Made by a program: the position numbers and the translations under genes. From a virus (lineage: Duplodnaviria; Caudoviricetes), in IMG/VR virus record IMGVR_UViG_3300037478_000503, positions 1-35,758 of that record: a stretch of DNA of 35,758 nucleotides. The stretch is one strand, 5' to 3'. The notes below the pieces were generated by a model, which had not been told where the DNA came from, did no database searches, and saw only the letters and a list, made by a program, of their open reading frames with translations. Positions 4,674 to 33,289 of this stretch are shown in pieces. Positions within the stretch are counted from its first letter, which is position 1. Every line of letters begins with the position of its first letter.

Positions 4674-4714
4674 ACCGTCTCCCTTGTCTACTGGTGATAT
4701 CCGTTGTCGTGTGT

Positions 4715-4768
4715 GAGCGATGGACTGTTAATCCATTGGTTGTAGGTTCGAGTCCTACCCGCGGAGCC
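4715..4768 (+). other. attP core: 3' part of tRNA-Asn(GTT)
   Basis: GAGC-G-ATGGA-CT-GTT-AA-TCCAT-TGGTT-GTAGG-TTCGAGT-CCTAC-CCGCGGA-G-CC; full D-arm and 5' part missing; downstream of int. Confidence 0.9.
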
Positions 4769-5265: not shown

Positions 5266-5994
5266 TCAGACGGTGGGGATCTGTCCGCGCACCTCGTCAA
5301 TCAGACCGAGCGTCAGACAGTCGTCGCTCGAGAGCCACCAGTCGCGGCGCTCCCAGTTCCGTTTGATCTTCGACGCTGACAGTTTCCCGTTCGACCGGGA
5401 GACGAAAATGTCAATGATCCGCTTCTCAATCCGCTGGATCAGCTTCACCCGATCCTCAATTTCGAAGGTCTGACCCACCACACCGAATGCGGCCCTATGA
5501 ATCAAGAGCCAGCACTCCTTGGTGAGGAACCGTTTCGTGCCGGCCTGGACGAGAATCCCGGCCATCGATGCAGCCATGCCCGCCCCCCCGGTTGTAACCT
5601 CATGGCCGTTCTCACCGAGCTCGACGATAAAGTCGAAAAGCTCCATACCATCGAAAATGCTCCCGCCCGGACTGGAGAAGATGACTTCGATGGGACAGTC
5701 GGGGTCGAGCCGATGCCATTCGGTCAGCTTGCTAATACACTTGCCGACCGAGGTGGCGCCGACTTCTCCGTCGAACCGGTACACATGATTGTGTTCGTCG
5801 GATGCCCGCCGGGCAGCGTCCTCTTCGCCGGCGACGGTCGCCTTCAACTCTGCCTGGTCGGCTGATGCTTCCGCACTCCGGGCGAGCGCATCCTCCTTAC
5901 GGGCTTCGGCAAGGAACTTGCGTGCCTCAGCCTGGGCCCGTTCAGCGTTGGCAGCCTGTTCGGCGGGACTGGTCTGCTGCTGTTCGTCTCCCAT
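5266..5994 (-). CDS. ClpP-like serine protease with N-terminal coiled coil
   Basis: FSSPGGSIFDG, GMAASMAG (catalytic Ser), LLIHR (His), RDWWLSSDDCLTLGLIDEV; AAGGAG SD. Confidence 0.9.
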   Translation of the reverse strand: MGDEQQQTSPAEQAANAERAQAEARKFLAEARKEDALARSAEASADQAELKATVAGEEDAARRASDEHNHVYRFDGEVGATSVGKCISKLTEWHRLDPDCPIEVIFSSPGGSIFDGMELFDFIVELGENGHEVTTGGAGMAASMAGILVQAGTKRFLTKECWLLIHRAAFGVVGQTFEIEDRVKLIQRIEKRIIDIFVSRSNGKLSASKIKRNWERRDWWLSSDDCLTLGLIDEVRGQIPTV

Positions 5995-10958: not shown

Positions 10959-11060
10959 ATACCCCCCTCAAGACGGATGGTGTAGAGTTGGAGGCGGTTG
11001 GACGGATCAGGCCATGATCCGACCTACCTCCTTAACCCCCGTCCCCTGCGTGGATGGGGG

Positions 11061-11095
11061 TTGACTATCTGTGCTACCTTTGCTACAGTGCGGGT
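11061..11095 (+). promoter_or_regulatory. Leaderless promoter with tandem TGCTAC boxes
   Basis: TTGACT(11061)-N17-TACAGT(11084)-N6-ATG(11096); TGCTAC at 11072 and 11081. Confidence 0.8.
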
Positions 11096-11233
11096 ATGGC
11101 ATGGATACGGCTACAACTCCCGGACGATCTTCACCGGAAGATCAAGGCGCAGGCCGCCCTAGCCGGAATGACACTCCGCGGCTATCTGATCAAGATGTTG
11201 CAGGAGCTCGCAGACAGGAAGGACAAGCAATGA
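11096..11233 (+). CDS. Ribbon-helix-helix (CopG/Arc/ParG-like) protein, 45 aa
   Basis: Own translation: MAWIRLQLPDDLHRKIKAQAALAGMTLRGYLIKMLQELADRKDKQ. Confidence 0.85.
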   Translation: MAWIRLQLPDDLHRKIKAQAALAGMTLRGYLIKMLQELADRKDKQ

Positions 11234-11367
11234 TCATCCTGATCGTGCTACTACTCGCATTAAACGGCTGGGCCGATGACCTGCCGTACATGCTCGAGGG
11301 GGTGGTTATCAGTGAAGTCGACAAAGAAATCCCCGACTCTGGTCAACCAAGCCCCCACCCGAAATAG
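11230..11367 (+). CDS. Small protein with hydrophobic N-terminus
   Basis: MIILIVLLLALNGWADD...; AAGGA SD; ATGA overlap with RHH gene. Confidence 0.55.
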   Translation: MIILIVLLLALNGWADDLPYMLEGVVISEVDKEIPDSGQPSPHPK

Positions 11368-11391
11368 GGCTGGGGGCTTAACCCAAAACGG

Positions 11392-19491: not shown

Positions 19492-20993
19492 CCTTGGGAA
19501 CCTCCTGTAAGACCACCGGACGACTGCCCACCGGCAAGATCTCCGAATTGGACTGCGACGATCAGGCCGCCCTCCTGGAAGGTGCCGGATCCGCCGATTT
19601 CGACACCTGACGCCTGCGGGATGGTGATGAGCATCGCTATAACACCAGGGCTGACTTCGGCGGGCCCCTGGACGGTCACTCCGGGCAGGTCAAATGTTGC
19701 GGCGAGTCCATCGGGTTCGACAACTGTCCCGCCGGTTGTGACCGTGGGGGCTGGAATGGTGACGGTCGCAGCAACAGTCTGCGGCGTAGTAGCGGCAGGA
19801 GTGCCAACAGACGCCTGCGGGACGGTGAACGCTCGGGCTATCGCATCGGGAGTGACGGTCGCGCCGAACGCTGCGGTCACCTGGGGGAGGGTGAAACTTC
19901 GGCTGATCGTATCCGGGTTAACAACTGCGGCTCCGCCTGCAATCACGGTTACGGCCGGAATGGTGAACGACAGGTTTGCGGCGGCGGGAGAGGCCACCCC
20001 CCCTCCCTCGAGTGTGACCTGAGGGATAGCGAAAGATGCTGCAATCTGTGCCGGTCCTGTAACCGATGCGCCTCCCGCGGTGGCGGCGGGGAGGGTGAAT
20101 GATCGGAGGATCGCATCTGGCGTGACCGACCCTGGTGTTCCTCCAGCTCCGCCGTCCGCTGTCGCCTGCGGGACGGTGACCGTAAGGGCCAACGATCCGG
20201 GGGTGACCACGGAACCCCCGGAGACGGTCACGGCGGGGGTTGTGGCAGCCGTAGCGACTGTTGCTGGCGTAGTAGTCGCGGAACCCTGAGCGGACGGTGA
20301 CAGCGTTGTAAACGACCGGACGATAGCTGCTGGAGCGGTAGCCGCACCACCCTCCACGCTGGCGGCAGGAACTGTGAAGGCTCGGGCTATCGCTGCCGGG
20401 GTGGCTGAACCTGGCGTCCCCCCGCCCAAATCTCCGCCATCGAAGCTATCAACCCTGACTCGGCGGGCGGTGTGCGTATGGTATGCCCCTACGCCGACAT
20501 AGGCACCCGAAGCGATACTGGTGTTCGTGACACTAATTTCCTCAACGTCGTTGAAGAAGCCTCGGATCGTGGACCCTTCGGCTTCGATGCGGATGGTGTG
20601 CGGGTCAGTGTCAAGCCCGCCCACCCCAGTAGCGCTGGTGATCTCGGTGAACGTCCCGGCGTTGCACCGATACAACGTCAACTCACCGCTCGAAGCAGGG
20701 TTCCAGTCGATCCGGTAGAACGTCGCCTCCGACGCCGACACTCGGACCATCACCGACGCTTCACGGTAGGTGGCGGTCGTACCATCATTGACGAACTCTG
20801 CCTCGCAGAATTGGTCGTCCGAGTCGAGCGCAGTCGTATGGCGAGCCTGTGTGACCGTCGAGTTGGCAGGGGCGGTTACCAGACCCGAAACGACATCCAG
20901 ATCAGCCAGGCCGGTTACGGGAGCCCACACCCCCGAAGACACCGTTGCCAGCACACCGTTGCTGTAGGTAAAGGTGTCAGATACCGTCGCCAT
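19488..20993 (-). CDS. Virion fibre protein: ConA/laminin-G-like domain plus ~12 repeats of ~22 aa
   Basis: HTIRIEAEGSTIRGFFND...GAYVGV...VDSFDGG followed by TPxxIxRxFTxPxxxxxGG repeats. Confidence 0.7.
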   Translation of the reverse strand: MATVSDTFTYSNGVLATVSSGVWAPVTGLADLDVVSGLVTAPANSTVTQARHTTALDSDDQFCEAEFVNDGTTATYREASVMVRVSASEATFYRIDWNPASSGELTLYRCNAGTFTEITSATGVGGLDTDPHTIRIEAEGSTIRGFFNDVEEISVTNTSIASGAYVGVGAYHTHTARRVRVDSFDGGDLGGGTPGSATPAAIARAFTVPAASVEGGAATAPAAIVRSFTTLSPSAQGSATTTPATVATAATTPAVTVSGGSVVTPGSLALTVTVPQATADGGAGGTPGSVTPDAILRSFTLPAATAGGASVTGPAQIAASFAIPQVTLEGGGVASPAAANLSFTIPAVTVIAGGAAVVNPDTISRSFTLPQVTAAFGATVTPDAIARAFTVPQASVGTPAATTPQTVAATVTIPAPTVTTGGTVVEPDGLAATFDLPGVTVQGPAEVSPGVIAMLITIPQASGVEIGGSGTFQEGGLIVAVQFGDLAGGQSSGGLTGGSQG

Positions 20994-21021
20994 TTAGATC
21001 AGCTCCAATCCAGAGGAGGGG

Positions 21022-22119
21022 TTAGATCGGCTCTAGCGACGGCCAGTAGTAGTTGCCCTCCGAAAGGTTGCCCGGATCAGAAGCGTCGAAACCGGTGATG
21101 TTCCCCGCCCGGCCACAAATATCGAACGGTGCCACATAGGACGGGTCGAAACCGTTGTCCAGGATACGAACGTTCGCTGTGTCGGTCTGATCGTGGGTTG
21201 ACCCGCCGTAGACGCAGTATCCGGCCTGCCCACCAAACAGATTGTCTTGAACCAGCACATCATGGACCGGCGACGGGTACCCGTAGATGGCCAGAGCGGC
21301 GGAACAGCCGGACGGCACATCGCAGATCAGCTTAGAGCGGACCACCGTATGATCCGACCCTCGAAGCAGGACAGCCTCACGGTGGGCACTATCAGAGATC
21401 GGCCTGTCCACAATCAGGATCGAATCCTCGATCAGAGTGTTGCCATAGGAGATGAACCCCTGGCTCATGTTGTGGGCATACACCCGACGCAGCGTCACCC
21501 CATTCGTGTAGGACAATCCTGCCCCTCGGGTTGCATTCGTGGGCAGATTCTGCCCGTCGAACTCAGTGTCCTCCACCACCAGACCAGGATGGTTATCCCG
21601 ATTGTCCAACCCGTAGTTGGTCGTGTAGAGGACCCGACTGTTACGCAGAGTCACATTCGCATGTTTGACAATGAACCTGCCCCGAATCTCCAAGTTCTGC
21701 ACCACCTGGCCGGCGCTCGACGTGGTGAAGTCGCCCGAGTGGACGGTCAGCGTTCCCGAAGGGCCGGGAGGGCTAGTGGGCCAGCCTGCCGTCACAGGAA
21801 GAGTCGAAGACGGAGCTTCCGACGTTGTGATCGTCTCGGGGACAGTGGTTGTCGGAGCCTGAGTTGTGGTGGTGACTTCAGTGGTGGTGGTCGTGGGGGC
21901 AGCCGTGGTGGTCGTTTCGGGGACGACGGTTGTGGACGTCGAAGACGAGAAGACTTCAGCCTCGAGAACGGCCACCCGCGCTTCCAATGCGGCGAACTCG
22001 TCGTAGCCAACCACTTCCACCGGGCCCGACGCGAAAGCCATCCCACCAAGCAGTCCGACGACAAGCAGACCAGAAGCCCAGGCCATTAAGACGCGACGAA
22101 ACTTGGACGATGAAAACAA
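21022..22119 (-). CDS. Secreted protein: signal peptide, Thr/Pro linker, right-handed beta-helix domain
   Basis: GGAGGT SD plus TTG; KFRRVLMAWASGLLVVGLLGGMAFA; TTTTAAPTTTTT; VVQNLEIRG..NVTLRNSRV..VVEDTEFDG..LIEDS..VLVQDNLF. Confidence 0.85.
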   Translation of the reverse strand: MFSSSKFRRVLMAWASGLLVVGLLGGMAFASGPVEVVGYDEFAALEARVAVLEAEVFSSSTSTTVVPETTTTAAPTTTTTEVTTTTQAPTTTVPETITTSEAPSSTLPVTAGWPTSPPGPSGTLTVHSGDFTTSSAGQVVQNLEIRGRFIVKHANVTLRNSRVLYTTNYGLDNRDNHPGLVVEDTEFDGQNLPTNATRGAGLSYTNGVTLRRVYAHNMSQGFISYGNTLIEDSILIVDRPISDSAHREAVLLRGSDHTVVRSKLICDVPSGCSAALAIYGYPSPVHDVLVQDNLFGGQAGYCVYGGSTHDQTDTANVRILDNGFDPSYVAPFDICGRAGNITGFDASDPGNLSEGNYYWPSLEPI

Positions 22120-22120
22120 T

Positions 22121-22181
22121 GCAGGCACCTCCTACAGGGTGTCGGCCAAGGCCCCCGGCATCTCGCGGATGCGCGGGGGCC
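22121..22181. promoter_or_regulatory. Two-hairpin structured element, copy 1
   Basis: GGCACCT-cctaca-GGGTGTCGGC-caa-GGCCCCCG-GCATC-tcgcg-GATGC-G-CGGGGGCC. Confidence 0.75.
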
Positions 22182-22187
22182 GAACAA

Positions 22188-22634
22188 TTAGTAAGTCAAT
22201 GTGAACAGCCCAGACGCATTCCACTGCACGGTGAACGTGCTGTTAGAACACGATGCGGCAGTAACAAAGTCGTGAAGGCAGACAAGCTGGTTCGTGGCCG
22301 AACCCGATACGGTGGTGACCAGGACCGACGCCATCGCATCAGTGATCGTCACATCGTTCGAACCGCCATTGTCGAACACGGTGTCCGCGGCGTCATAGGT
22401 CAGCGTCCCCGACGTGAGGGTGACCTCAGTGGAGCCGACCACGTCGGCCGCATAGTTACCACCGGCAATCTCATCGGTCAGGTCCGCATGGAAATCGTGT
22501 GTGTCGAAGTCCGGCGTGTGAGCGTCCTCCACCAGCGAGAGGGTGTGATCCTCCGCTTCGAGGCTTTCGCCGAGCGTGTCGATCAGCATCTTCTCAATGG
22601 TCAGCCCGTATAGACCGGATGCGGTAATAGACAT
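22188..22634 (-). CDS. Virion structural protein (likely fibre-associated)
   Basis: GGNYAA...TLTYDAADTVF...LHDF...FTVQWNASGLFTL; in the head module upstream of the fibre gene. Confidence 0.7.
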   Translation of the reverse strand: MSITASGLYGLTIEKMLIDTLGESLEAEDHTLSLVEDAHTPDFDTHDFHADLTDEIAGGNYAADVVGSTEVTLTSGTLTYDAADTVFDNGGSNDVTITDAMASVLVTTVSGSATNQLVCLHDFVTAASCSNSTFTVQWNASGLFTLTY

Positions 22635-22843
22635 CAGTTCACCTCAGCTTTCGCACCGATGGCTGCAACGGATGCGCCATCCTTGACAGGGGGGCGGGCG
22701 CCGGACCGGTACGCCTGGCGGAGAGCACGCAACGCCACTCTGTCTTCACTGGTCAACGTGCCAGCCTTCTTCTTCTCAACAAACGCAGCCTCAGCTTCGA
22801 GCAGTTCGAGCTCAGCGCGTTTCCTTGCGATCTTGTCGCTCAT
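22634..22843 (-). CDS. Hypothetical protein
   Basis: MSDKIARKRAELELLEAEAAF...; AAGGAAGG SD; TGATG overlap. Confidence 0.7.
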   Translation of the reverse strand: MSDKIARKRAELELLEAEAAFVEKKKAGTLTSEDRVALRALRQAYRSGARPPVKDGASVAAIGAKAEVN

Positions 22844-23126
22844 TGATACCTTCCTTGATATGTCGGACACCTGTCGGACCGGAGGCCAAATGGAAGTAGC
22901 CCCGGTCGATCATCTCTTTCATGGTCATCGGACGAACATGACCGTCCGGATCTACGAGGTAACGGATCGCCGACGGTGCGGCCAGCGACGACACCCGCCC
23001 CTCCCAGTTCTCAGAGTGGGCGACAATCCCCTGCGGGCTCACCTGCCCGGACTTTGCAACACCTTCAACCGTCGTATTCGTCTTCTGCTTGTAGCGGGCC
23101 AGGTAAAGGAACGGCCGATGCGCCAT
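22812..23126 (-). CDS. Hypothetical protein
   Basis: MAHRPFLYLARYKQK...; GGAG SD. Confidence 0.6.
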   Translation of the reverse strand: MAHRPFLYLARYKQKTNTTVEGVAKSGQVSPQGIVAHSENWEGRVSSLAAPSAIRYLVDPDGHVRPMTMKEMIDRGYFHLASGPTGVRHIKEGINERQDRKETR

Positions 23127-23271
23127 CGAAAAGCTCCAGTCGAATAAACGTGTCGACGCCTTCCCACCCACGGGCGATAATCTGGTCGTAGACCCAATGT
23201 TCAAGCCGGTTAACGCCGTACAGATCCGCGAAGCCGGCGAGCAGCATGAACGCCCGTTTGGCAAGCCACAC
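23065..23271 (-). CDS. Hypothetical protein
   Basis: AAGGAG SD plus GTG; WLAKRAFMLLAGFADLYG. Confidence 0.6.
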   Translation of the reverse strand: MWLAKRAFMLLAGFADLYGVNRLEHWVYDQIIARGWEGVDTFIRLELFDGASAVPLPGPLQAEDEYDG

Positions 23272-23285
23272 GTTCAGCTCCTTCA

Positions 23286-23342
23286 TGTGGAGGGGTGTCG
23301 GAGTGCCACAGAACTGCGCGCGCCGCCGGGCACCCCTCCACA
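23286..23342. repeat. 12-bp inverted repeat (possible terminator after head genes)
   Basis: TGTGGAGGGGTG (23286-23297) / CACCCCTCCACA (23331-23342). Confidence 0.6.
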
Positions 23343-23344
23343 GA

Positions 23345-23629
23345 TCATTCGTCCTCTTCGGACGACACCTCAGCTTCAACCTCGACAGCTTCGGCCGGCT
23401 CATCCTCAACTACAGGTTGAGCGACAGGCTGCGGTTTGGCTGCACGCCGTTTCCGGCCCGGCGTTTTCACCGCCTGCTCGATACCGAGCAGCTCGTCAAC
23501 CGATTCGAACAAGTCCGGATTACGCTTCACAAACGGATGATCAGACCGATAGTCCTTCCCCTCATGGATAAAGGAGCCATCAGGAAACGCGACAGTCGTT
23601 TTCGCTCGCATAGATCTAACTTGAACCAT
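23345..23629 (-). CDS. Head-module hypothetical protein
   Basis: DHPFVKRNPDLFE...EQAVKTPGRKR; AAGGAG SD. Confidence 0.8.
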   Translation of the reverse strand: MVQVRSMRAKTTVAFPDGSFIHEGKDYRSDHPFVKRNPDLFESVDELLGIEQAVKTPGRKRRAAKPQPVAQPVVEDEPAEAVEVEAEVSSEEDE

Positions 23630-23638
23630 CGTTGCTCC

Positions 23639-24028
23639 TTAGGGCAGGAAGTAGGCCTGGATCGAATACGTCTTGGCTGTGGCGTCGCTCTTAGCGGCCT
23701 CGACACGCCACTTGTAGAGGAGGGGGGTCTTCTCCACCGCATTCGCCCGATCGGTCGGTGCGGACGGGTGGAGCAGCAGCATCGTCGTACCCACATTGGT
23801 GATCGCAGAACTTACAAGCGCATCGTCAATACCCGCGCCATCGTCGGTCTCGACTGTGAGAGTGACAGTCCCAGTAGTCGCCGCTGTCACATCAAGGACG
23901 ATGAGGACACCCCGATATTGGGATGGAATCCCGTCGTACCACTGAGACGAGGAAGTGGCGGTATGGGCGGCGGAAGCGAGCAGGGTGACAGGTTGAGGCG
24001 GGTCGAACCCGTAAACAGGACGAGCCAT
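23639..24028 (-). CDS. Putative capsid decoration/accessory protein
   Basis: Beta-rich 129-aa protein after capsid gene; AAAGGAG SD. Confidence 0.6.
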   Translation of the reverse strand: MARPVYGFDPPQPVTLLASAAHTATSSSQWYDGIPSQYRGVLIVLDVTAATTGTVTLTVETDDGAGIDDALVSSAITNVGTTMLLLHPSAPTDRANAVEKTPLLYKWRVEAAKSDATAKTYSIQAYFLP

Positions 24029-24063
24029 AGTAGGCTCCTTTCAATCAGTAGGCGAATATCTGG

Positions 24064-24861
24064 TCAGACGACCAGACGAAGTTGATCTGAACCAGCAAGA
24101 GCAGCGATCACATACTCTCGGTAATGGGCGACCAGCCACTCGGCTAGGTCTTCGGGACGTTGACCAGATGGCTGCGAGCTAATCCACAGTTCAAGGTTCT
24201 CGAGCCGGTTGTCGTCACGGATACCGTTGACGTGATGCACGTTCTCGTGACGGGCCAGTTCTCGACCAAGGTGGGCTTCCATCACAATCCGGTGGACCGC
24301 AAGGTTCTTTTTGAACACCGAGACATACACATACCCGTTGGGCTTACCGGAACCCACCATTCGACCGGCAACCACTTCACCCTTCACGAACTCGCCATAA
24401 TGGTCGCGACAATATTCGTCCGAGTTTGGGGTTGCTATGGCTTCGGCACCACACACCCTGCATTTCTTGTGTGTAGCAAAAGTGCCGTCTACGTCGCCAT
24501 ACAGGCGGACTCTGCGGCGATGAGTCGGGCACAGCTTGGTAGCTGTAACAGATAGGTTCGTACAATCGACAACTCGACACTCAATGGCTGGCGATCGTTC
24601 GGGCTTCAAGCCGCCCACATCGCCCCTGGTGCGGAGCCGGTTGTAGTGCATCGAGCACCAACCACGACCGAAAGTAGGCTTCGGGCACCCATCAGGGTGG
24701 CAACACAACTCTCCAGCCCTTTTTGTGGGTTCTGATCTGAGTCGGCCCACCGGACCGGGGGCGTCATGCTTACGGATGCGTTCGTAGTGCATCACGCACC
24801 AGCCGCGCCGGTAGACCCTTCTATCGCACCCATCAGGATGGATGCATGTAATATCTGACAC
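24064..24861 (-). CDS. HNH homing endonuclease with N-terminal Cys/His repeats
   Basis: Repeated C.HPDGC...RGWC.MHY.R units; VHRIVMEAHLGR...VHHVNGIRDDNRLENLELW. Confidence 0.93.
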   Translation of the reverse strand: MSDITCIHPDGCDRRVYRRGWCVMHYERIRKHDAPGPVGRLRSEPTKRAGELCCHPDGCPKPTFGRGWCSMHYNRLRTRGDVGGLKPERSPAIECRVVDCTNLSVTATKLCPTHRRRVRLYGDVDGTFATHKKCRVCGAEAIATPNSDEYCRDHYGEFVKGEVVAGRMVGSGKPNGYVYVSVFKKNLAVHRIVMEAHLGRELARHENVHHVNGIRDDNRLENLELWISSQPSGQRPEDLAEWLVAHYREYVIAALAGSDQLRLVV

Positions 24862-24919
24862 GTCGATACCTCCAATACAGGTGTCGGCCTGCCCCCGGCC
24901 GTGTAAGCGGTGCGGGGGC
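24862..24919. promoter_or_regulatory. Two-hairpin structured element, copy 2
   Basis: GTCGATACCT-ccaatac-AGGTGTCGGC-ct-GCCCCCG-GCCG-tgtaag-CGGT-G-CGGGGGC. Confidence 0.8.
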
Positions 24920-24922
24920 GTT

Positions 24923-24962
24923 TAAGTAGTGGGGAGAATTGTAACACTCCCCCCACTACTTA
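24923..24962 (-). terminator. Hairpin after capsid gene enclosing an extended -10 (TG-T-TACAAT)
   Basis: TAAGTAGTGGGG (24923-24934) / CCCCACTACTTA (24951-24962). Confidence 0.65.
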
Positions 24963-24972
24963 CCAGGGTCTA

Positions 24973-26424
24973 CTAGGTGGTGATTATGTTCAAAACGCGA
25001 AATGCGTTGTCAACAATTGAATCTGCCCCTACGCGCCAGTGTGCAAACCATCCTCTTTCACCGGTGGGAAAGTTGTTGCTTCCCCCGACCAGGTTTGGGA
25101 TGTACTCGAGGGTCACTCCGACCCTGTCAACAATGACATACTTCGAGAAGTCGCCGTAGAGAAGAACATGGTTATCCTCGGCTGCATCTGTGTCGATGTC
25201 GGCGAAGGCGTCCATGTCCGAAGATTCGAACAGCCTCTTACCCAACAGGACCGGCGGAGTGTCACCGGCAAGGTCTGTCAGGAACCCGTGGTAGTTGTTG
25301 GCAGTAGCGAACTGGCGGATCGTGTTGATCGTGGACAGTTCAGCCATCCAAACGGCGTTCTGACGGAAGCGAGGCGGCAGCGCCTGCATCACCCGATACA
25401 CGTCACTGACCTGCATCGTCCCCTCAGAGCCGGAGTCAGCAACCTCAGAAGCGGTGCCGTCCAACGCGGTAAGAATCCCGGTTGGCTCCGTACCACCAGC
25501 ACCGCGGGTAAACGCAGTACCCTCCAACTGATCCTTTTCGTCGGCAAGCACCATCCCAATATCCGACTCGATCGCCTGGTAGTCCTGGCTGATCTCAATC
25601 GAACCACGCACGAACGCTGCACCCTTGTAGACGGGAATGTTCGGCTGTGCGAACGTGAGCGTCGACTCGGACACTTCCGTACTCTCACCTAGCCACGCCG
25701 AGGCGGCACCCGCCGTCGACAGGCCATTCCAGGCGTCAGTAGTGATCGACACCTGGCGGGCAACCTGACGGATCGGATTGTTAGTCCCACCACTGGTCAG
25801 GATGAGGGTCGGATCGAGGGTGAACGGGACGGCGAAGCCGCCCTGAGAGCCGGTCAGGCCCATGGCAGTCCGATACTCCTCAAGGGAGGCGACAGCGGTC
25901 CGCTCATCATGCGTCCACAGGTCCTGACGTCCGGCCATCGCCTTCTGGAAGGCTTTCCGGTAGTCACTGTTACCAGTGCGGATGACCAGGTTGGGGATGA
26001 TCCCACGGGGGTCGTCCACGGTCGCCATTTTTGCGACTACCGCTTCGCGCTGGTCGTCGCTGATGTGCGATTCGACCTGCTCGACGGCAGTCTTAGCACG
26101 GCCACGAAGCTCCGAGGTTGGAGTATTCCAGCGAAGATCGTTCAAGTCGAACGGATCCTTCTTCACGTTCACGTGAAGGTTCACACCGTCAACCAGATTC
26201 TTCTTCTGTTCGGCCAGCTTCTCGATACGGTCGAGCCGCTTCAGCTTCTCGACAACCTCAGCCTTCTCCTCCGCAATAGCGGTGAGACGACCCTCATTTT
26301 CAGCGAACTTCTCCTCGTCCTGCTCGGCAGGGTCGAGGTCGGCAATAGTCCGCTGCTCTTCAATCAGTTCGTCGGCTTCAACCGCGAATGCGGACAGCCG
26401 CTCTTCAAGGGCCTTACGGTCCAC
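24973..26424 (-). CDS. Major capsid protein, HK97 fold
   Basis: Coiled-coil delta domain; QGGFAVP, NPIRQVA, AWLGE, LLYGDFSKYVIVDRVG, RVGADSI; AAGGAG SD. Confidence 0.96.
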   Translation of the reverse strand: MDRKALEERLSAFAVEADELIEEQRTIADLDPAEQDEEKFAENEGRLTAIAEEKAEVVEKLKRLDRIEKLAEQKKNLVDGVNLHVNVKKDPFDLNDLRWNTPTSELRGRAKTAVEQVESHISDDQREAVVAKMATVDDPRGIIPNLVIRTGNSDYRKAFQKAMAGRQDLWTHDERTAVASLEEYRTAMGLTGSQGGFAVPFTLDPTLILTSGGTNNPIRQVARQVSITTDAWNGLSTAGAASAWLGESTEVSESTLTFAQPNIPVYKGAAFVRGSIEISQDYQAIESDIGMVLADEKDQLEGTAFTRGAGGTEPTGILTALDGTASEVADSGSEGTMQVSDVYRVMQALPPRFRQNAVWMAELSTINTIRQFATANNYHGFLTDLAGDTPPVLLGKRLFESSDMDAFADIDTDAAEDNHVLLYGDFSKYVIVDRVGVTLEYIPNLVGGSNNFPTGERGWFAHWRVGADSIVDNAFRVLNIITT

Positions 26425-26485
26425 GAGTAACTCCTTCTATGGGCGCGAACGAACAGGGGGTCGTCGCGCGGTGGTAAGCCAGGAC

Positions 26486-27337
26486 CTAGCTGGCCGGATG
26501 AATCAGCCCGTACAGTTCGAGACTGCGGGCCAGGTCGACATGCGGCTGTGCTGACTCAGCAGCAGCGGCGGCACGTTCTAGATCGCACACCCTGTCTCGG
26601 AGGTCGGGGTCCTGACGGAACAGGGCCCGGATGTCCTTCTCGGGGTCTGCGAGAAATCTGAATGCGTAGGCGGCACGGGAAGCGTGGCGGGTGATCCCAG
26701 CAGCGGTAAGGGACCCGTCCATCGCCGCAAGCGCTGCACGTTTGTAACCGAGTTGTCGCATGGAGGCGGCGGAAGCTTCGGAAGTGGTCTGCGGGAACGC
26801 TGGGAACACGACCGGTCCGACTTCAAACAGGTCATAGCGGAGGATTGTCCTCAACGGCACTTCCAGGTCGTTGTCCTCGGAGGGTTCCTCCCACATATCC
26901 TTCTCAACCCGGAACCAGATCGACGAGCCGGTCACGTCACGACGGGCGACGCGGGCATGTATCGCCATAGCGTTCGGGTCGTCAGTGTTAACCACAGCGC
27001 TATACAGCAGCCCCTCCTCGTTCGGATCGTCCAAACTCAAGGTTCCGGCGGTTGTCCGGGCGATCAGGTTGTTGATGTCGTGGTTGAACGTCGAAACAAT
27101 ATCGACGTCGGCCCGAGTGATCGAAGAATGTGCTGCGCCCGGAGCGACCATCTCATCCCACTCCTCGAACCATCCTTCGATACGAGCGATCTGCCCGTAA
27201 GGCGAACCCAACCCGGAAATGGTCAGAACACCCTCATCGGCTTCAACAGTGTCGGCACGCACCTCGTCGGTGTAGCCGCGGGCTTCCAGCCCGCCAGGGC
27301 CGAACTCTTGTGAGAAACGTTCACGCAAGTCAGTCAT
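26486..27337 (-). CDS. HK97-family prohead protease
   Basis: TFNHD...IART..GTLSL...GLLY...SSIWFRV...LFEVGPVVFPAF; between portal and capsid. Confidence 0.92.
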   Translation of the reverse strand: MTDLRERFSQEFGPGGLEARGYTDEVRADTVEADEGVLTISGLGSPYGQIARIEGWFEEWDEMVAPGAAHSSITRADVDIVSTFNHDINNLIARTTAGTLSLDDPNEEGLLYSAVVNTDDPNAMAIHARVARRDVTGSSIWFRVEKDMWEEPSEDNDLEVPLRTILRYDLFEVGPVVFPAFPQTTSEASAASMRQLGYKRAALAAMDGSLTAAGITRHASRAAYAFRFLADPEKDIRALFRQDPDLRDRVCDLERAAAAAESAQPHVDLARSLELYGLIHPAS

Positions 27338-27347
27338 CGGAGAATCC

Positions 27348-28718
27348 TTAGGTAGCGTTATCGGGCATATCCTCAGGCATGTCCTCGGGCATACCCTCGG
27401 GCTCCGCTTCCGGCGCCATCGTGCCGGGCGGTTGCAGTTGCACGCTGAACAACCCGGAGTGGGTGAGCAGCGAAAAGTCATCATTCTCGATCGCCGCCAC
27501 AACCGAATCCGCCTCATACCCTGCGTCCAACAGCGCCCGAATCGACGTGGCCCGAAGCTGCTGGATCTCCGCCGCGTCCTTCTCATCCTCCCGAAGGAAC
27601 GCAATATCCCGTTCGTCATACCACAGTTCAGAATTGCGAGGAACCGTAACGATCTGCTCGTAACTGCCACAGAATGAACGCCACAAGGGGCGGAAAAGGG
27701 CATCCGCCACCCTCCTACGGGCTGCCGCATAGTTCCCAGCGTTCAACGAGGAGCCCTGCATCCCCTCCGAAAATTGGGCCATCACCGCGCCCACCCCGGA
27801 AGCGGCAGCAATCCTCGTTTCGCCGGCACCCTGCACCACTTTGAAATCCAACTGCTGCATATCCTTGCCGACAACGGTCGCATCCGCACCCGCCCCCAGA
27901 TACAAGGTCCGGTAGGCGTTGTCGATCCCCTCATGCTGCTGGCGGAGCAGTTCCACCCACTTCATGAATTGGTCCACATCCGAAATGTCGTTCTTCACAA
28001 TCATGTTCGGCGTGCCGCCGTTCTCAAAAAACTTGTTCTTATGGGCTGACGCCAGCTTGTCGCCCTGAATCTCCCGGACAACCGGGGTCAGCCACGACAT
28101 GCCCCGAAAGTTCGCGATCGGATCAGGAACCGGAGCCCAATGGGCCACATCCTCGGGCATGTAGAAGATCGGGTCGGCATACCTGTTACCCGACGGGTGA
28201 TACAGGTAGGCGACCACTTCCGCTTCAGGATCGTCAACCGCGTCCATATCCTCCCGGTTGGAGCCGAGCATGATCGACACCCAGTCAGGACGTAACCTCA
28301 CCACCCGGCCACCAGAACGGACTGCGAAATGGTTACCCGCCAGGTCCGCATCCAGGATCGCCCGGGTCAACATGTCGCCCGTCGTCAACCCGGGACCGGG
28401 CCGGTGAAGCACGTTCAACGCCGACGTATGATGCAGCTCTCCGGGTCGACCTTTGATCAGCTTCCGATACATGAGCCGCGCTTCGGAGAAGACCATCATC
28501 CGGACCAGTTCGCAGGCGAATACGATTCCGTTCGACTTGTACGCCCCCGACACGTACCCGTCGAAGGTGCCCGGGATATCCTCCCGATCCCCGTAGAGGG
28601 TCTGGTTCAGCCCGTACGGGTAGGTGACACCGTTGAAGCCGAAATATCCGGCAATATCGCCCAGTCCAAGATCCGACCGGGTTTCCCCTTTGACGAATGC
28701 GGCGAGCAGGTCAACCAC
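27348..28718 (-). CDS. Portal protein (HK97 family)
   Basis: LAGNHF, RLRPDWV, FRGMSWL, FFENGGTP, RIAAASGV. Confidence 0.95.
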   Translation of the reverse strand: MVDLLAAFVKGETRSDLGLGDIAGYFGFNGVTYPYGLNQTLYGDREDIPGTFDGYVSGAYKSNGIVFACELVRMMVFSEARLMYRKLIKGRPGELHHTSALNVLHRPGPGLTTGDMLTRAILDADLAGNHFAVRSGGRVVRLRPDWVSIMLGSNREDMDAVDDPEAEVVAYLYHPSGNRYADPIFYMPEDVAHWAPVPDPIANFRGMSWLTPVVREIQGDKLASAHKNKFFENGGTPNMIVKNDISDVDQFMKWVELLRQQHEGIDNAYRTLYLGAGADATVVGKDMQQLDFKVVQGAGETRIAAASGVGAVMAQFSEGMQGSSLNAGNYAAARRRVADALFRPLWRSFCGSYEQIVTVPRNSELWYDERDIAFLREDEKDAAEIQQLRATSIRALLDAGYEADSVVAAIENDDFSLLTHSGLFSVQLQPPGTMAPEAEPEGMPEDMPEDMPDNAT

Positions 28719-28878
28719 TAGAACTCCTTAACGACGAGAGCCCGCCGGCAATCAGGAACACAGAACCGACCACCAGACCGGCACGCCAGTCAAAGTAGAA
28801 GACACCCGCCGCAACCCCGAGTACGGCACCCACCAGGACCGCAGCAGTAGCAGCCAGCCGAGCCTGAACCGGAGTCAT
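28711..28878 (-). CDS. Small two-TM protein between terL and portal
   Basis: MTPVQARLAATAAVLVGAVLGVAAGVFYFDWRAGLVVGSVFLIAGG; ATGA overlap. Confidence 0.8.
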   Translation of the reverse strand: MTPVQARLAATAAVLVGAVLGVAAGVFYFDWRAGLVVGSVFLIAGGLSSLRSSSG

Positions 28879-30251
28879 ACGACAGCGAAAGGCGGGAACG
28901 AGTCACCCTCGGTGACCGCCGACGCGAAGGCGATGCTCGCAGCCATCAACAGTTCACCCCCAGGAGCCTCACGATGCCAAGAAAACGAATCCGTCGTCGA
29001 CTTCTTCACAGCAGCAGCAACAGCAGCGTCCAAGCGTTCATCGGTACGAACCTGCACCTTCTGGTCAGCAATCGCATCGAAAAACCGCCCGCACGCCTTA
29101 CGAATCCCAAGAGAATCAAGCCGCCTCACCTGATAGCCCAACTTCTCCAGATCATCCGCAATATGCGCCACCGGACCGTGGCCGTCGACCACCAGAGACG
29201 TCGACTTGCCCACCTTCTCCGGAATCTCAGAAAGCAGCCAGTCCACCTTCTCCCGGACCGCCACCAGCTCCACCCGACCCGAATTATCAGCCTTCACCAC
29301 ACAGGCCTGCGAATGATCAGGCTTCGCCTCAATCACAAACAGAGGCGACTCACACTGCACATCCACGGCAGACACGGCCTTCCACCAGGCCGCCGGAATC
29401 ACCCGCTCCTCCGTCTCCGTCCACTGGTTCCCGTAGGCCCGGCGGAACTCCCCTTCAGGCATGGAGGTTTCCCCCTGAATCACCGGCTCTGACACCGTGT
29501 ACCCGAACGCCGGCATATGCCGTGCCCACACTCGAGGGTCATAAATGTCCTCATCCTCCGGAATGGCCCACTCGAAGTAGGCGATCCCAGTGTCCTTCCC
29601 CGCCTTAACCGCCGCACGACCAATGTCAACCTTCTGCCGCAGATACGTAGACGCCGGCGTACCAGCCGTCGAGGTCACCCAAATCTGACCGGCCGGTCTC
29701 GTCGTCATCGTCGGACGCAAAGCCTGCTCCCGGCGAAAATCGGTGTCCTCAAAAGCTTCGTCTATGACAGCCATATCCAAGGTCTTCGAATGACCACCAT
29801 CCGGGTGGAGCACGGAGATCCGAGAGTTGTTCTTGAACACGACCTGTGTGTTCGCATCGCTCAGATAGAAGCGCCGCACCATGCCGGACAGCGACGAAGA
29901 TTCAATCATCGGCTTCTGATCTTCTTTGAACTTCTGCCGGCCAATCTGTCCGGTCTGCGCCGTGTAGGCGACCGCCTGCGGTTTCCCCCACATGAGACAC
30001 CGCTCAAGCTCCGCAGCCAAGACCAGAGAGGTCTTCCCGTTCTGCCGCATGACGGTGACAATCACCTCGCGGTACGCCGGGAATCCTGTCTCGGGGTCGA
30101 TCTCGCATCCCACATCGGCAACAAGCTGCTGCCACGGCATCAGTGGCGTACCCAGCTTGTCAGCTATCGCCCCAACCCGACTACCGAACGTTTTACGAGA
30201 GGGAGTGCGCGGGGTCTCCCACACCGGGGAAGCCAGAGAAGAAGTCGTCAT
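28875..30251 (-). CDS. terL: Terminase large subunit
   Basis: LMPWQ Q-motif, Walker A MRQNGKT, Walker B VIDEA, TSTAG coupling motif. Confidence 0.95.
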   Translation of the reverse strand: MTTSSLASPVWETPRTPSRKTFGSRVGAIADKLGTPLMPWQQLVADVGCEIDPETGFPAYREVIVTVMRQNGKTSLVLAAELERCLMWGKPQAVAYTAQTGQIGRQKFKEDQKPMIESSSLSGMVRRFYLSDANTQVVFKNNSRISVLHPDGGHSKTLDMAVIDEAFEDTDFRREQALRPTMTTRPAGQIWVTSTAGTPASTYLRQKVDIGRAAVKAGKDTGIAYFEWAIPEDEDIYDPRVWARHMPAFGYTVSEPVIQGETSMPEGEFRRAYGNQWTETEERVIPAAWWKAVSAVDVQCESPLFVIEAKPDHSQACVVKADNSGRVELVAVREKVDWLLSEIPEKVGKSTSLVVDGHGPVAHIADDLEKLGYQVRRLDSLGIRKACGRFFDAIADQKVQVRTDERLDAAVAAAVKKSTTDSFSWHREAPGGELLMAASIAFASAVTEGDSFPPFAVV

Positions 30252-30438
30252 CAGCACCACCCGCCACGACCTCCTGCAACAACTCCAACATCCGCCGATA
30301 CTCCGACCAGAGACCAGGCGAATCCGGCTTGGCGTCGAGTTCAGCCGCCAGCGTCTTCAATGCGGCCTCGAGCGCAGCATGTTCCGGACCGAGCACCGGA
30401 AGAGCCTGCAGCGTTTTTTCGATGGCAGCTAGGTTCAT
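30193..30438 (-). CDS. Terminase small subunit (putative)
   Basis: Short helical protein LAAELD...EYRRMLELL just upstream of terL. Confidence 0.7.
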   Translation of the reverse strand: MNLAAIEKTLQALPVLGPEHAALEAALKTLAAELDAKPDSPGLWSEYRRMLELLQEVVAGGADDDFFSGFPGVGDPAHSLS

Positions 30439-30439
30439 T

Positions 30440-30560
30440 CCAAGCCTTTCGGCGAAACACAAAAGGACTAAGGGCGCCACTCGGGGCGTGCTGTCGTGGC
30501 CCGTGTCGACGCCCCGCCCCTACCCGTGCATGAACACGGGCTCGGGGTCAGGTGGTGGTG
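30440..30560. other. Putative cos/packaging region
   Basis: Non-coding gap between HNH and terS with GGGTAGGGGCGGGG tract (- strand) and hairpin CCCGTG/CACGGG; local strand composition flips across it. Confidence 0.5.
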
Positions 30561-30561
30561 A

Positions 30562-30840
30562 CTACCACCGTTCGGGGTGGGTCAGGGTACGTGGGGTGGA
30601 CCGTGGGGTGGTACGCCTACGTGCCTGGTTGCATGGTGAGCAGGCTGCTCGACAGTTGGTATCGGTGAACCACATGCCTCCGAGACGTGGGGGGATGATG
30701 TGGTCTAAATCTGTGGCACACCCGGGGCAGGTGGGGGAGTGGGTGCATACGCCTGGTAGTCGGATACGACAGTGGCCGCCGTCACGTTCGAAGATACGCT
30801 GTTTGAACCCGGGCGGGTAGCGATGCCAGGGTTTGCTCAA
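30562..30840 (-). CDS. Terminase-associated HNH endonuclease (HK97 gp74-like)
   Basis: RDGGHC...ATDLDHIIP..GG...NCRAACSPCN; AGGAGG SD; next to terS. Confidence 0.9.
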   Translation of the reverse strand: MSKPWHRYPPGFKQRIFERDGGHCRIRLPGVCTHSPTCPGCATDLDHIIPPRLGGMWFTDTNCRAACSPCNQARRRTTPRSTPRTLTHPERW

Positions 30841-30859
30841 AACATCCTCCTACCCTTAC

Positions 30860-30921
30860 AAAAGGTAAAACGCCTCCCATGCTGTGTCGGATCCGTTTCC
30901 GTAATCCGGCCCTGGGAGGCG
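30860..30921 (-). terminator. Intrinsic terminator in the late leader
   Basis: CGCCTCCCA...TGGGAGGCG followed by TTTTACCTTTT. Confidence 0.75.
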
Positions 30922-30985
30922 ATGGAAGCTGGGTGTTCGGGCATGAGCCTCAACGGGGGATGCTCACCGTTTACGGCTGGGAATC

Positions 30986-31016
30986 ATTATAGGCAGGTTT
31001 CGCGGACTCATGTCAA
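30986..31016 (-). promoter_or_regulatory. Late promoter candidate
   Basis: TTGACA(31016-31011)-N19-TATAAT(30991-30986). Confidence 0.75.
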
Positions 31017-31403
31017 ATCATCGTCGCATCCGGTCGTGGTAGTGAGAGCATCCCGTTCACCTTCGTCCATTGGGATGCGAACCGACGACTGGTGATAGTC
31101 GGTCGCCTTCGCTGCTGCTTCTAGCCGTTCCGGGTTGAGGGTGTAACCCCTACCACCACAACCAGGACAAGGAACCACAACATCATCGAAGGTGGACGCC
31201 GTGTATTCGACATCATCGTGTAGCCCGTCGCCACCGCAGTCGTCACATTCGGTGTGCAGGTCAAGCCAAGCCCGAGAAGCATCAGCCAGGACACGCAGCG
31301 CTTCTAGGTCCTCAAGATCAAGCATCCCGCTTCCATCAGCCAAAACGCCTAACGCTTCTCGGATTTGGGTTGGGGTAGGGGTCATACCATCTTCTTTGCT
31401 CAC
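31008..31403 (-). CDS. DnaJ-type CxxCxGxG zinc-finger protein
   Basis: CDDCGGDG...CPGCGGRG; paralog of 33008-33289; start 31403 (GTG) or 31385. Confidence 0.75.
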   Translation of the reverse strand: MSKEDGMTPTPTQIREALGVLADGSGMLDLEDLEALRVLADASRAWLDLHTECDDCGGDGLHDDVEYTASTFDDVVVPCPGCGGRGYTLNPERLEAAAKATDYHQSSVRIPMDEGERDALTTTTGCDDDLT

Positions 31404-31786
31404 TGGTCCCCCTTGAGTCGACCAACCTCGGCGCGCCAATCCACCCTCAAACCCGACCCGCGATGCTCTCGAGCTTTCGCACGGAGCTCATCCCACCGGC
31501 CCGGATAGTGGTCGTCGATGAAGTCATGCCAGGCTGCCGGCCGGTGAGTGAAGAAGACATGGTGTGCCTGGCAGAGAGTCAGAGCGTTCGACTCGTCGAC
31601 CCGGAGGCTCAGTTCACCTCTACCGACGATATGGGCGCATTGCAGATACCCCGAACAGGTGATGTCATGAGTGCCGACTGCCTGGCAGTGGCCGTCCCGA
31701 GCGCGGATCAGTTTGGAAAAGAGGCGGTCGGCTCGCTTCATGTAATCCTGTTTCGGACGCTTCTTCGGACGCGTACTAGGAGGCAC
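31400..31786 (-). CDS. NinG/Rap-like endonuclease
   Basis: ADRLFSKLIRARDGHC...QCAHIVGR...LRVDESNALTLCQAHH; GGAGG SD plus GTG. Confidence 0.75.
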   Translation of the reverse strand: MPPSTRPKKRPKQDYMKRADRLFSKLIRARDGHCQAVGTHDITCSGYLQCAHIVGRGELSLRVDESNALTLCQAHHVFFTHRPAAWHDFIDDHYPGRWDELRAKAREHRGSGLRVDWRAEVGRLKGDQ

Positions 31787-32114
31787 GAAGCACCTCCGCG
31801 ACCGACTTGGCACCTTTCGATGCGTTGCATGACCGACACGAGGGCCGAAGGTTCGACAGACAATGCGGACCACCACGAGCCAGGGAGATGACATGGTCAA
31901 CTTCTTGAAAGGGGCCACTACACATCCAGCACTGGTTGCCCCAGAAGGCCATGCGGGCGTCAAGCTCGGCAGAAGTGAATGTCGCTATCAGACCCGCCCG
32001 TTGCCGTGCTCGACGACAGTGTCTGTGATACCCGGCATCAGTTCCACGAGCAGGGAAGCCGGCGTTGATCCCGGTCTTGGCGGGACGTTCACAAACCAGC
32101 TTAGACTCTGTCAC
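31776..32114 (-). CDS. HNH endonuclease
   Basis: CWMC...DHVISLARGG.HCLSNLRPSCRSCNASKG. Confidence 0.92.
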   Translation of the reverse strand: MTESKLVCERPAKTGINAGFPARGTDAGYHRHCRRARQRAGLIATFTSAELDARMAFWGNQCWMCSGPFQEVDHVISLARGGPHCLSNLRPSCRSCNASKGAKSVAEVLRAS

Positions 32115-32168
32115 GTCGACTCCTGTGTAGTCGGCCAGGCCCTCGGCTGTTTGCGCAGCGCGGGGGCC
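32115..32168. promoter_or_regulatory. Two-hairpin structured element, copy 3
   Basis: GTCGACT-cctgtgt-AGTCGGC-ca-GGCCCTCG-GCTG-tttgcg-CAGC-G-CGGGGGCC; extended -10 TG-C-TACGAT at 32191-32183. Confidence 0.8.
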
Positions 32169-32219
32169 ATCTCTTGTCGATAATCGTAGCAGAATCCTGC
32201 TTCTTCGGAGGACGACGGC

Positions 32220-33015: not shown

Positions 33016-33289
33016 CGTCAGACTCCTTCCCGATGTTGAGGGTGTAACCCCTACTACCACAAGCAGGACAAGTAGCTCGCTTGTCGGTGAACCCTGCGAC
33101 CTGCTGCCAGCCTTCACCAGCACATTCCTCGCATTCGGTGTGCAGGTCAAGCCAAGCCCGAGCAGCAGCAGCCAATATGACTTGAACACTTAGAGAGTCA
33201 AGGTCGAATGCGTTGGGGTATCTCTTCTCGATGGTTCTCCGCCACGAATCGTGAACCGCTAGAGCTTCTCTCAGCTTGTCCCTATCCAT
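33008..33289 (-). CDS. DnaJ-type CxxCxGxG zinc-finger protein
   Basis: CEECAGEG...CPACGSRG; AGGAG SD. Confidence 0.8.
   Translation of the reverse strand: MDRDKLREALAVHDSWRRTIEKRYPNAFDLDSLSVQVILAAAARAWLDLHTECEECAGEGWQQVAGFTDKRATCPACGSRGYTLNIGKESDDG

Follow-up and report, generated by a model that had tools for sequence, protein, structure and literature searches.

In the insertion sequence (IS) element IS10, the cis-encoded antisense RNA RNA-OUT lies over the 5′ untranslated region (UTR) of the gene for the mobile element's enzyme and blocks the initiation of its translation, while integron attC sites and the ends of IS200/IS605 elements are imperfect palindromes that are strand-asymmetric and carry an extrahelical base. 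Here we compare such systems with a recurrent two-hairpin leader that stands in three copies in the virus record IMGVR_UViG_3300037478_000503, analysed over its whole 35,758 bp (the window). According to the available part of PMC4513863, art200 of IS200 is likewise a small RNA encoded in cis, facing the 5′ UTR for a mobile-element enzyme and blocking translation initiation, with mRNA structure as a second layer of control. Both art200 and RNA-OUT serve one transposase each, whereas the leader described here heads 42 protein clusters and is shorter, and neither RNA gave a sequence match in Rfam scans of the window, of the third copy alone or of 20 loci of the family. A further likeness is to the hairpins that sequester the ribosome-binding site (RBS) of T4 and Aeh1 homing endonuclease genes, which the accessible text of PMC2988022 describes as a portable unit limiting a free-standing nuclease inside phage operons. 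The T4 and Aeh1 hairpins work within the mRNA, in cis, and a late promoter bypasses them (same portion of PMC2988022), whereas in our family the strand that folds better and carries a predicted promoter is the opposite one. From sequence comparison we consider it likely that the leader is a gene for a ∼55–60-nt cis-antisense RNA that is laid across an inserted gene's 5′ leader and is predicted to block translation of that gene. The class of mechanism is already known, and the family is set apart from every Rfam family at the thresholds of our scans.

A first-pass annotation of the window had reported three copies of the leader, and these proved real, at 22121–22181 (copy 1), 24862–24919 (copy 2) and 32115–32168 (copy 3): the pattern GTCGGC-N1-5-GCCCYCG-N8-22-GCGGGGGC matches the window three times, at the copies, and not once in 100 dinucleotide shuffles. 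On the − strand they head, respectively, a gene whose product has a signal-peptide-like N-terminus, a linker rich in Thr and a domain with kinship to the PF13229 beta-helix proteins (21022–22119), a free-standing HNH endonuclease gene of 265 aa (24064–24861), and a second, 112-aa HNH endonuclease gene unrelated to the first (31776–32114). The annotation's claim that the + strand folds better agrees with RNA folding of all three copies (−39.4 vs −33.8, −36.4 vs −27.3 and −31.5 vs −24.5 kcal/mol for the + and mRNA strands; z −4.5, −4.7 and −3.0), and the + strand is likewise better when folded as DNA. The bulged G on the 3′ side and the inner stems are as it described in every copy. Its GTG/TTG start codons had to be amended at copy 1, where TTG 22119 is the probable start, given that the Shine–Dalgarno (SD) sequence runs into the GTG at 22128.

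The two sense extended −10 boxes that had been reported are present (complement of 24938–24946 and of 32183–32191), and copies 2 and 3 have in addition a −10 box on the + strand that had been missed. In copy 2 this predicted antisense −10 (TAATAT, 24849–24854) lies in HNH codons 3–5, 7 nt before hairpin A (24862–24888, anti-SD in the loop), with the predicted RNA 5′ end at 24862 and the predicted 3′ end at hairpin B (24891–24919, bulged G on the 3′ side). The sense box of the HNH gene sits in the loop of another hairpin past the capsid stop (24922–24961, − strand); a promoter within a hairpin is also found in the T4/Aeh1 units, in the part of PMC2988022 at hand. Copy 3 has its predicted antisense −10 (TAGACT, 32102–32107, + strand) 7 nt before hairpin A (32115–32135, anti-SD in the loop), followed by hairpin B with its bulged G (32138–32168) and, on the − strand, a sense extended −10 read from the sequence as TG-n-TACGAT (32183–32191). 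Copy 1 consists of a hairpin A with a divergent 5′ end (22121–22146) and a hairpin B with the bulged G (22150–22181), and neither it nor its homologue in phage L043, whose homology to the window starts at the outer edge of this hairpin B, has either box. A putative promoter of its own on the opposite strand, aimed over the SD, is thus present at copies 2 and 3 and not at copy 1, which is probably a decayed copy whose RNA is no longer made.

The distance between the antisense box and the hairpins is conserved. Among loci collected with two patterns that contain no promoter term, 43 of 50 members and 1 of 113 non-members carry TANNNT on the antisense strand ahead of hairpin A with a spacing of exactly 7 nt to its first G; spacings of 6–8 nt take in 45 of the 50 members, and no spacing other than 7 within 2–29 nt occurs in more than one. 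The corresponding p of 8e-31 overstates the case, as the members share ancestry and are not independent. The box falls in codons 3–5, and codon 4 has T as its third base in 33/33 cases compared with 37/462 later codons, indicating that the antisense −10 is not a protein constraint. A sense −10 stands 10–19 nt beyond hairpin B (83 hits in 127 members vs 20 in 241 non-members), and the two boxes face each other across ∼75 nt. A generic promoter and terminator scan calls none of these sites because it needs a −35 element and a U-run.

Building a covariance model, searching phage genomes and listing downstream genes, as proposed with the first-pass annotation, revealed a widespread family. Pattern scans of viral contigs gave 116, at least 119 and at least 119 loci and a scan of prokaryotic genomes at least 120; all family counts are among the matches listed. 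Filtering on structure alone (a closed hairpin A and a hairpin B at ≤ −17 kcal/mol) yielded 128 distinct hits, including two window copies, and removal of chance hits (L003, the second L027 hit, L034 and L075) and of repeats with an identical hairpin B left 110 members for the structure counts. The covariance model was built from these 110 and copy 1, and by construction scores copies 3, 2 and 1 at 55.7, 38.3 and 29.1 bits. It matches 38 of 61 genomes of the genus to which the Streptomyces record L378 belongs and, across the phylum of L378, 6 of 101, three of the six coming from the same genus set. The family resides mostly in actinobacterial records (phages, prophages and Streptomyces genomes), and its named carriers are Gordonia, Mycobacterium, Microbacterium and Propionibacterium phages, always before an HNH or endonuclease VII gene. 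The start codon adjoins hairpin A in 114 of 120 open reading frames (ORFs), which form 42 blastp clusters that include HNH, EndoVII, GIY-YIG/T5orf172, LAGLIDADG, integrase and DUF6415 proteins. Clusters with a Pfam nuclease account for 54 of the 120 (79 of the 120 were scanned), so the suggestion that the leader heads toxic genes fits these and not the rest. Several annotated HNH starts sit well downstream of the leader, whose position corrects the start codons of several such genes.

The annotation had assigned the element to no named family, and Rfam likewise returned none at threshold for the whole window, copy 3 alone or 20 member loci; RepX (RF00043) had no match at E ≤ 5 or E ≤ 10 in these scans. 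The family was undescribed in literature searches whose scope lay outside subscription journals and bioRxiv supplements, and candidate-RNA catalogues other than Rfam could hold it. Plasmid searches found no full family copy on any replicon with a checkable table of transcription start sites. Nine separate viral contigs (L007, L013, L031, L042, L054, L062, L071, L081 and L109) carry a near-identical leader with a bulge-less hairpin B before different small ORFs, and two members stand under non-actinobacterial labels: L547 1183–1243 (label Pseudanabaena phage Pan2) and L392 (a metagenome-assembled genome labelled Verrucomicrobiota).

The conserved structure of the family lies on the antisense strand. 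Counted up to the last base of hairpin B, the predicted RNA measures 51–62 nt (median 55); an anti-SD word lies within hairpin A in 98/110 members, a single 3′ G bulge is found in 89/110, and the mRNA strand folds worse in 104/110. The inner stem of hairpin B is fixed by no search pattern and shows 49 G-U against 6 C-A oppositions; pair 4 is Watson–Crick throughout (91/91, all four types), and the figure for the stem is 87% vs 44% shuffled. In a MAFFT alignment the covariation score of hairpin B, a check that the annotation had also proposed, exceeds 500 of 500 shuffles, while 324 of 500 shuffles reach the number of pairs that change on both sides. The cognate duplex has a computed net energy of about −80 kcal/mol compared with −12 to −19 for cross pairs, so copies should not cross-talk.

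In the mechanism we favour, antisense transcription by host sigma-A polymerase would begin with the first G of hairpin A, a base that lies across from position −1 of the start codon, and would stop a few bases past hairpin B. The bulge would ease strand opening, as bulges do in plasmid antisense RNAs; the anti-SD loop would pair with the SD and the duplex would then zip over the entire leader, so that the nuclease or recombinase would be made only at a trickle, from its own promoter or by read-through. We infer this repression of the nuclease by an antisense RNA from sequence features. The first-pass annotation had left three options unranked, an antisense regulator, a regulator that sequesters the RBS and a single-stranded DNA (ssDNA) hairpin of the attC or HUH type that marks mobile cassettes, and the first of these is now backed by the phased antisense −10, the G-U bias and an expressed relative.

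That relative is scr4677 (as4676) of Streptomyces coelicolor, the RNA of Rfam family RF02673, a ∼70-nt RNA (60–79 nt) antisense to the SCO4676 leader and abundant in three Streptomyces species, according to the accessible parts of PMC3896431 and PMC2602773. Like the RNA predicted for our family, it lies antisense over the 5′ end of the next gene and ends a few nt past a hairpin, and its orthologues end in a GCCCYCG...CGGGGGC hairpin, as in hairpin B of the family. It differs in having another hairpin A, a start at ORF nt 6 rather than position −1, a −10 in codons 5–7, and a tie to one chromosomal helix-turn-helix (HTH) gene family. The RF02673 model spans the whole intergenic region and is matched on the mRNA strand; hairpin B of copy 3 reaches 8.6 bits with it (E 1.2; cut-off 41 bits), and RF02673 gave no match in the whole-window scan or in 20 member loci. 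Its gene context is not found in the window either, as the genes here are two HNH nucleases and a beta-helix-related protein and not SCO4676-type HTH genes. One locus, L525, lies above the RF02673 cut-off and scores 29.9 bits with the family model. At 8 of 10 RF02673 loci TANNNT occupies ORF nt 14–19, 7 nt from the mapped start (the other two have no usable start), and the 7-nt rule applied to these orthologues therefore predicts a start at ORF nt 6. Differential RNA sequencing supplements, in the portions available, place the start at 5108124 (+) with SCO4676 starting at 5108129 (−), i.e. at nt 6 (PMC4681348, PMC4895711), an agreement which assumes that S. coelicolor has the codon layout of the orthologues; the antisense RNA as4676 spans 5108124–5108202 in the same portion of PMC4681348. 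At the last time point in the available rows of PMC4895711, SCO4676 has 6163 for mRNA against 52 for ribosome footprints and the next gene 5543 against 326. This deficit fits silencing and lends it weak support, because SCO0488 is equally low in the same rows (134 vs 0.8). The family fails the RF02673 cut-off yet is probably kin of scr4677.

We dropped the proposal that a cloned 34-nt piece of scr4677 is hairpin B, as by model positions the two overlap only. Further S. coelicolor RNAs antisense to gene starts are scr4628 (57 nt, 5049482–5049538, opposite SCO4627), as3252 and as4618; by published coordinates the length and geometry of scr4628 fit the family if SCO4627 starts 15 nt earlier.

Several observations weigh against the antisense reading. 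Copy 1 and its L043 homologue retain both hairpins without either −10 box. The overall G-U count (339 vs 16) is partly built in, since members were chosen by antisense-strand folding and the U-G pair of hairpin A is in the search pattern. The tail after hairpin B is 74% pyrimidine with no U-run (mostly 2–5 T in 8), and a terminator scan does not call it. The scr4677 loci score weakly with the family model (best 29.9 bits; 3/10 at the scr4677 site, E<0.5), and the published reads belong to the relative as4676 only, the family's own RNA being predicted. A search of sequencing runs for window positions 20500–30499 listed no RNA run. For that relative, the accessible parts of PMC3896431 and PMC2602773 report a start by 5′ rapid amplification of cDNA ends at 5108143, 14–15 nt upstream of the start codon and outside the gene, only a slight drop in SCO4676 mRNA upon threefold scr4677 overexpression, no involvement of RNase III, and an effect on translation that could not be measured, while another RNA-seq list gives the start as 5108129 (PMC3765725, available in part).

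If the antisense RNA is made but control results from convergent transcription, by promoter interference or insulation of a neighbour, hairpin B would merely be a terminator. The two −10 boxes opposed across ∼75 nt are what such a model expects, as are the subtle effects on SCO4676 mRNA, and those only, of plasmid-supplied scr4677 in the available part of PMC3896431. However, the model does not account for a hairpin A conserved with its anti-SD loop in 98/110 members, and the fixed bulge and covarying inner stem of hairpin B exceed what a terminator needs, making this explanation unlikely.

A cis-acting leader, in which hairpins of the mRNA sequester the SD as in the T4 and Aeh1 homing endonuclease genes, has its precedent in the accessible text of PMC2988022, and copy 1 retains the hairpins without promoters. 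Folding predictions for the mRNA pair about half of the SD (median unpaired 0.59, n=97), rather than the whole of it in a stable hairpin as in the T4 type. The mismatches, C-A, fall on the mRNA strand, which has the worse fold in 104/110 members, and the phased antisense −10 is left unexplained, so that we regard cis control as the sole mechanism as quite improbable. RBS sequestration, as raised in the first-pass annotation, can contribute in the mRNA yet leaves both the strand bias and the antisense −10 unaccounted for; cis structure in the mRNA may supplement antisense control, as the available part of PMC4513863 reports for IS200.

The remaining option concerns mobility, and the empty-site alleles that the annotation had suggested seeking were found at six sites in close relatives. 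The Gordonia phage Twonlo carries, and Chickadee lacks, a single 595-bp block in which an HNH gene is joined to its leader and sense −10; the flanks are 99.4–99.9% identical, and the edge of the block lies 22–27 nt beyond hairpin B. The block that sets Malisha apart from Periwinkle and Asapag measures ∼735 bp, is of like make-up and has its edge ∼45 nt beyond hairpin B. In Squiddly the Malisha leader stands at the same site, but the endonuclease VII gene behind it has another sequence from ∼22 nt onwards (−10 TAGAAT, compared with TACGAT in Malisha). In three of eight loci from relatives of the window phage (L537, L538 and L541) the capsid gene leads within ∼70 nt to the gene that lies downstream of the HNH gene here, where the window has 945 nt; the window HNH gene (24064–24861) and its leader are thus an insertion relative to three related phages. 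The family model has no match at any of the six empty sites (Chickadee, Periwinkle, Asapag, L537, L538 and L541), and a search for relatives of the copy 3 neighbourhood found none. Sense promoter, leader and ORF are therefore present or absent as one block in close relatives, and the block boundaries indicate that the leader travels as the 5′ control unit of the gene and is not itself the boundary. The proposed link to mobile cassettes holds insofar as the leader inserts together with its gene, and not for the insertion ends, which lie outside the hairpins. In Twonlo (L476 1967–2600, compared with Chickadee, L479) the 595-bp insertion lies inside the 3′ end of the upstream gene, with the HNH frame taking over the last 11 codons of that gene and the SD of the next gene kept.

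It is very improbable that the element is an ssDNA hairpin moving cassettes for a recombinase or HUH enzyme (attC-like or IS200/IS605-end-like): it shares strand asymmetry and a fixed extrahelical G with attC, its + strand folds better as DNA too, the L043 homology begins at the hairpin B edge and one unchanged leader can be followed by different ORFs (Malisha/Squiddly), but the insertions end 22–45 nt outside hairpin B with the sense −10 included, the empty sites hold no hairpin copy and the other end no second hairpin, the swap point lies ∼22 nt within the gene, the phased −10 is unexplained, and, in contrast to attC sites and IS200/IS605 ends, the family is unarrayed, off the insertion boundaries and without a dedicated recombinase alongside.

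The window carries terminase, portal, capsid, tail, endolysin and tyrosine integrase genes, and nearly all of its genes are on the − strand. A weaker look-alike of the leader that had been listed at 11317–11378 is not a family member: it has no family-model match at E ≤ 5, folds better on the − strand, bulges a C, and lacks both an adjacent start codon and a phased −10. It reads as an ordinary terminator between converging genes, after the stop of a small + strand ORF. This region (11054–11378, +) encodes a ParD-like 59-aa ORF (Pfam E 2e-4, under the cut-off) and then a 45-aa hydrophobic ORF that ends in the 11344–11378 hairpin, a small operon opposing the genome direction. Elsewhere we note a tRNA-Asn(GTT) gene just past the integrase region (4700–4768, +), a ClpP-type protease gene distant from the head genes (5266–5994, −) in addition to the S78 prohead protease, and 38- and 64-bp repeats common to two Cys-rich ORFs ∼1.9 kb apart (31134–31288 and 33035–33174), between which copy 3 and its HNH gene sit.

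The leader is a widespread predicted control module carried along with inserted nuclease genes in actinobacterial phages. New here are the controlled −10 phasing, the mapping of boundaries in cultured phages and a mapped antisense start to which the family is linked by sequence; cultured Gordonia phages with and without the insertion (Twonlo and Chickadee, flanks >99% identical) exist. A likely origin and role are offered for scr4677, an unexplained RNA of S. coelicolor. It is possible, though we propose this tentatively, that one RNA clan extends from phage homing nucleases and recombinases to chromosomal regulators of Streptomyces (scr4677), in which the leader would act as safety catch and swap handle: any dangerous ORF could plug in by recombination near the start codon, selection would rebuild the antisense −10 in codons 3–5, and variable loops would prevent cross-talk between copies. 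What is known of how essential phage operons tolerate free-standing nucleases comes mainly from T4-like phages and their cis hairpins, and the leader suggests a different, portable solution in actinobacterial elements.

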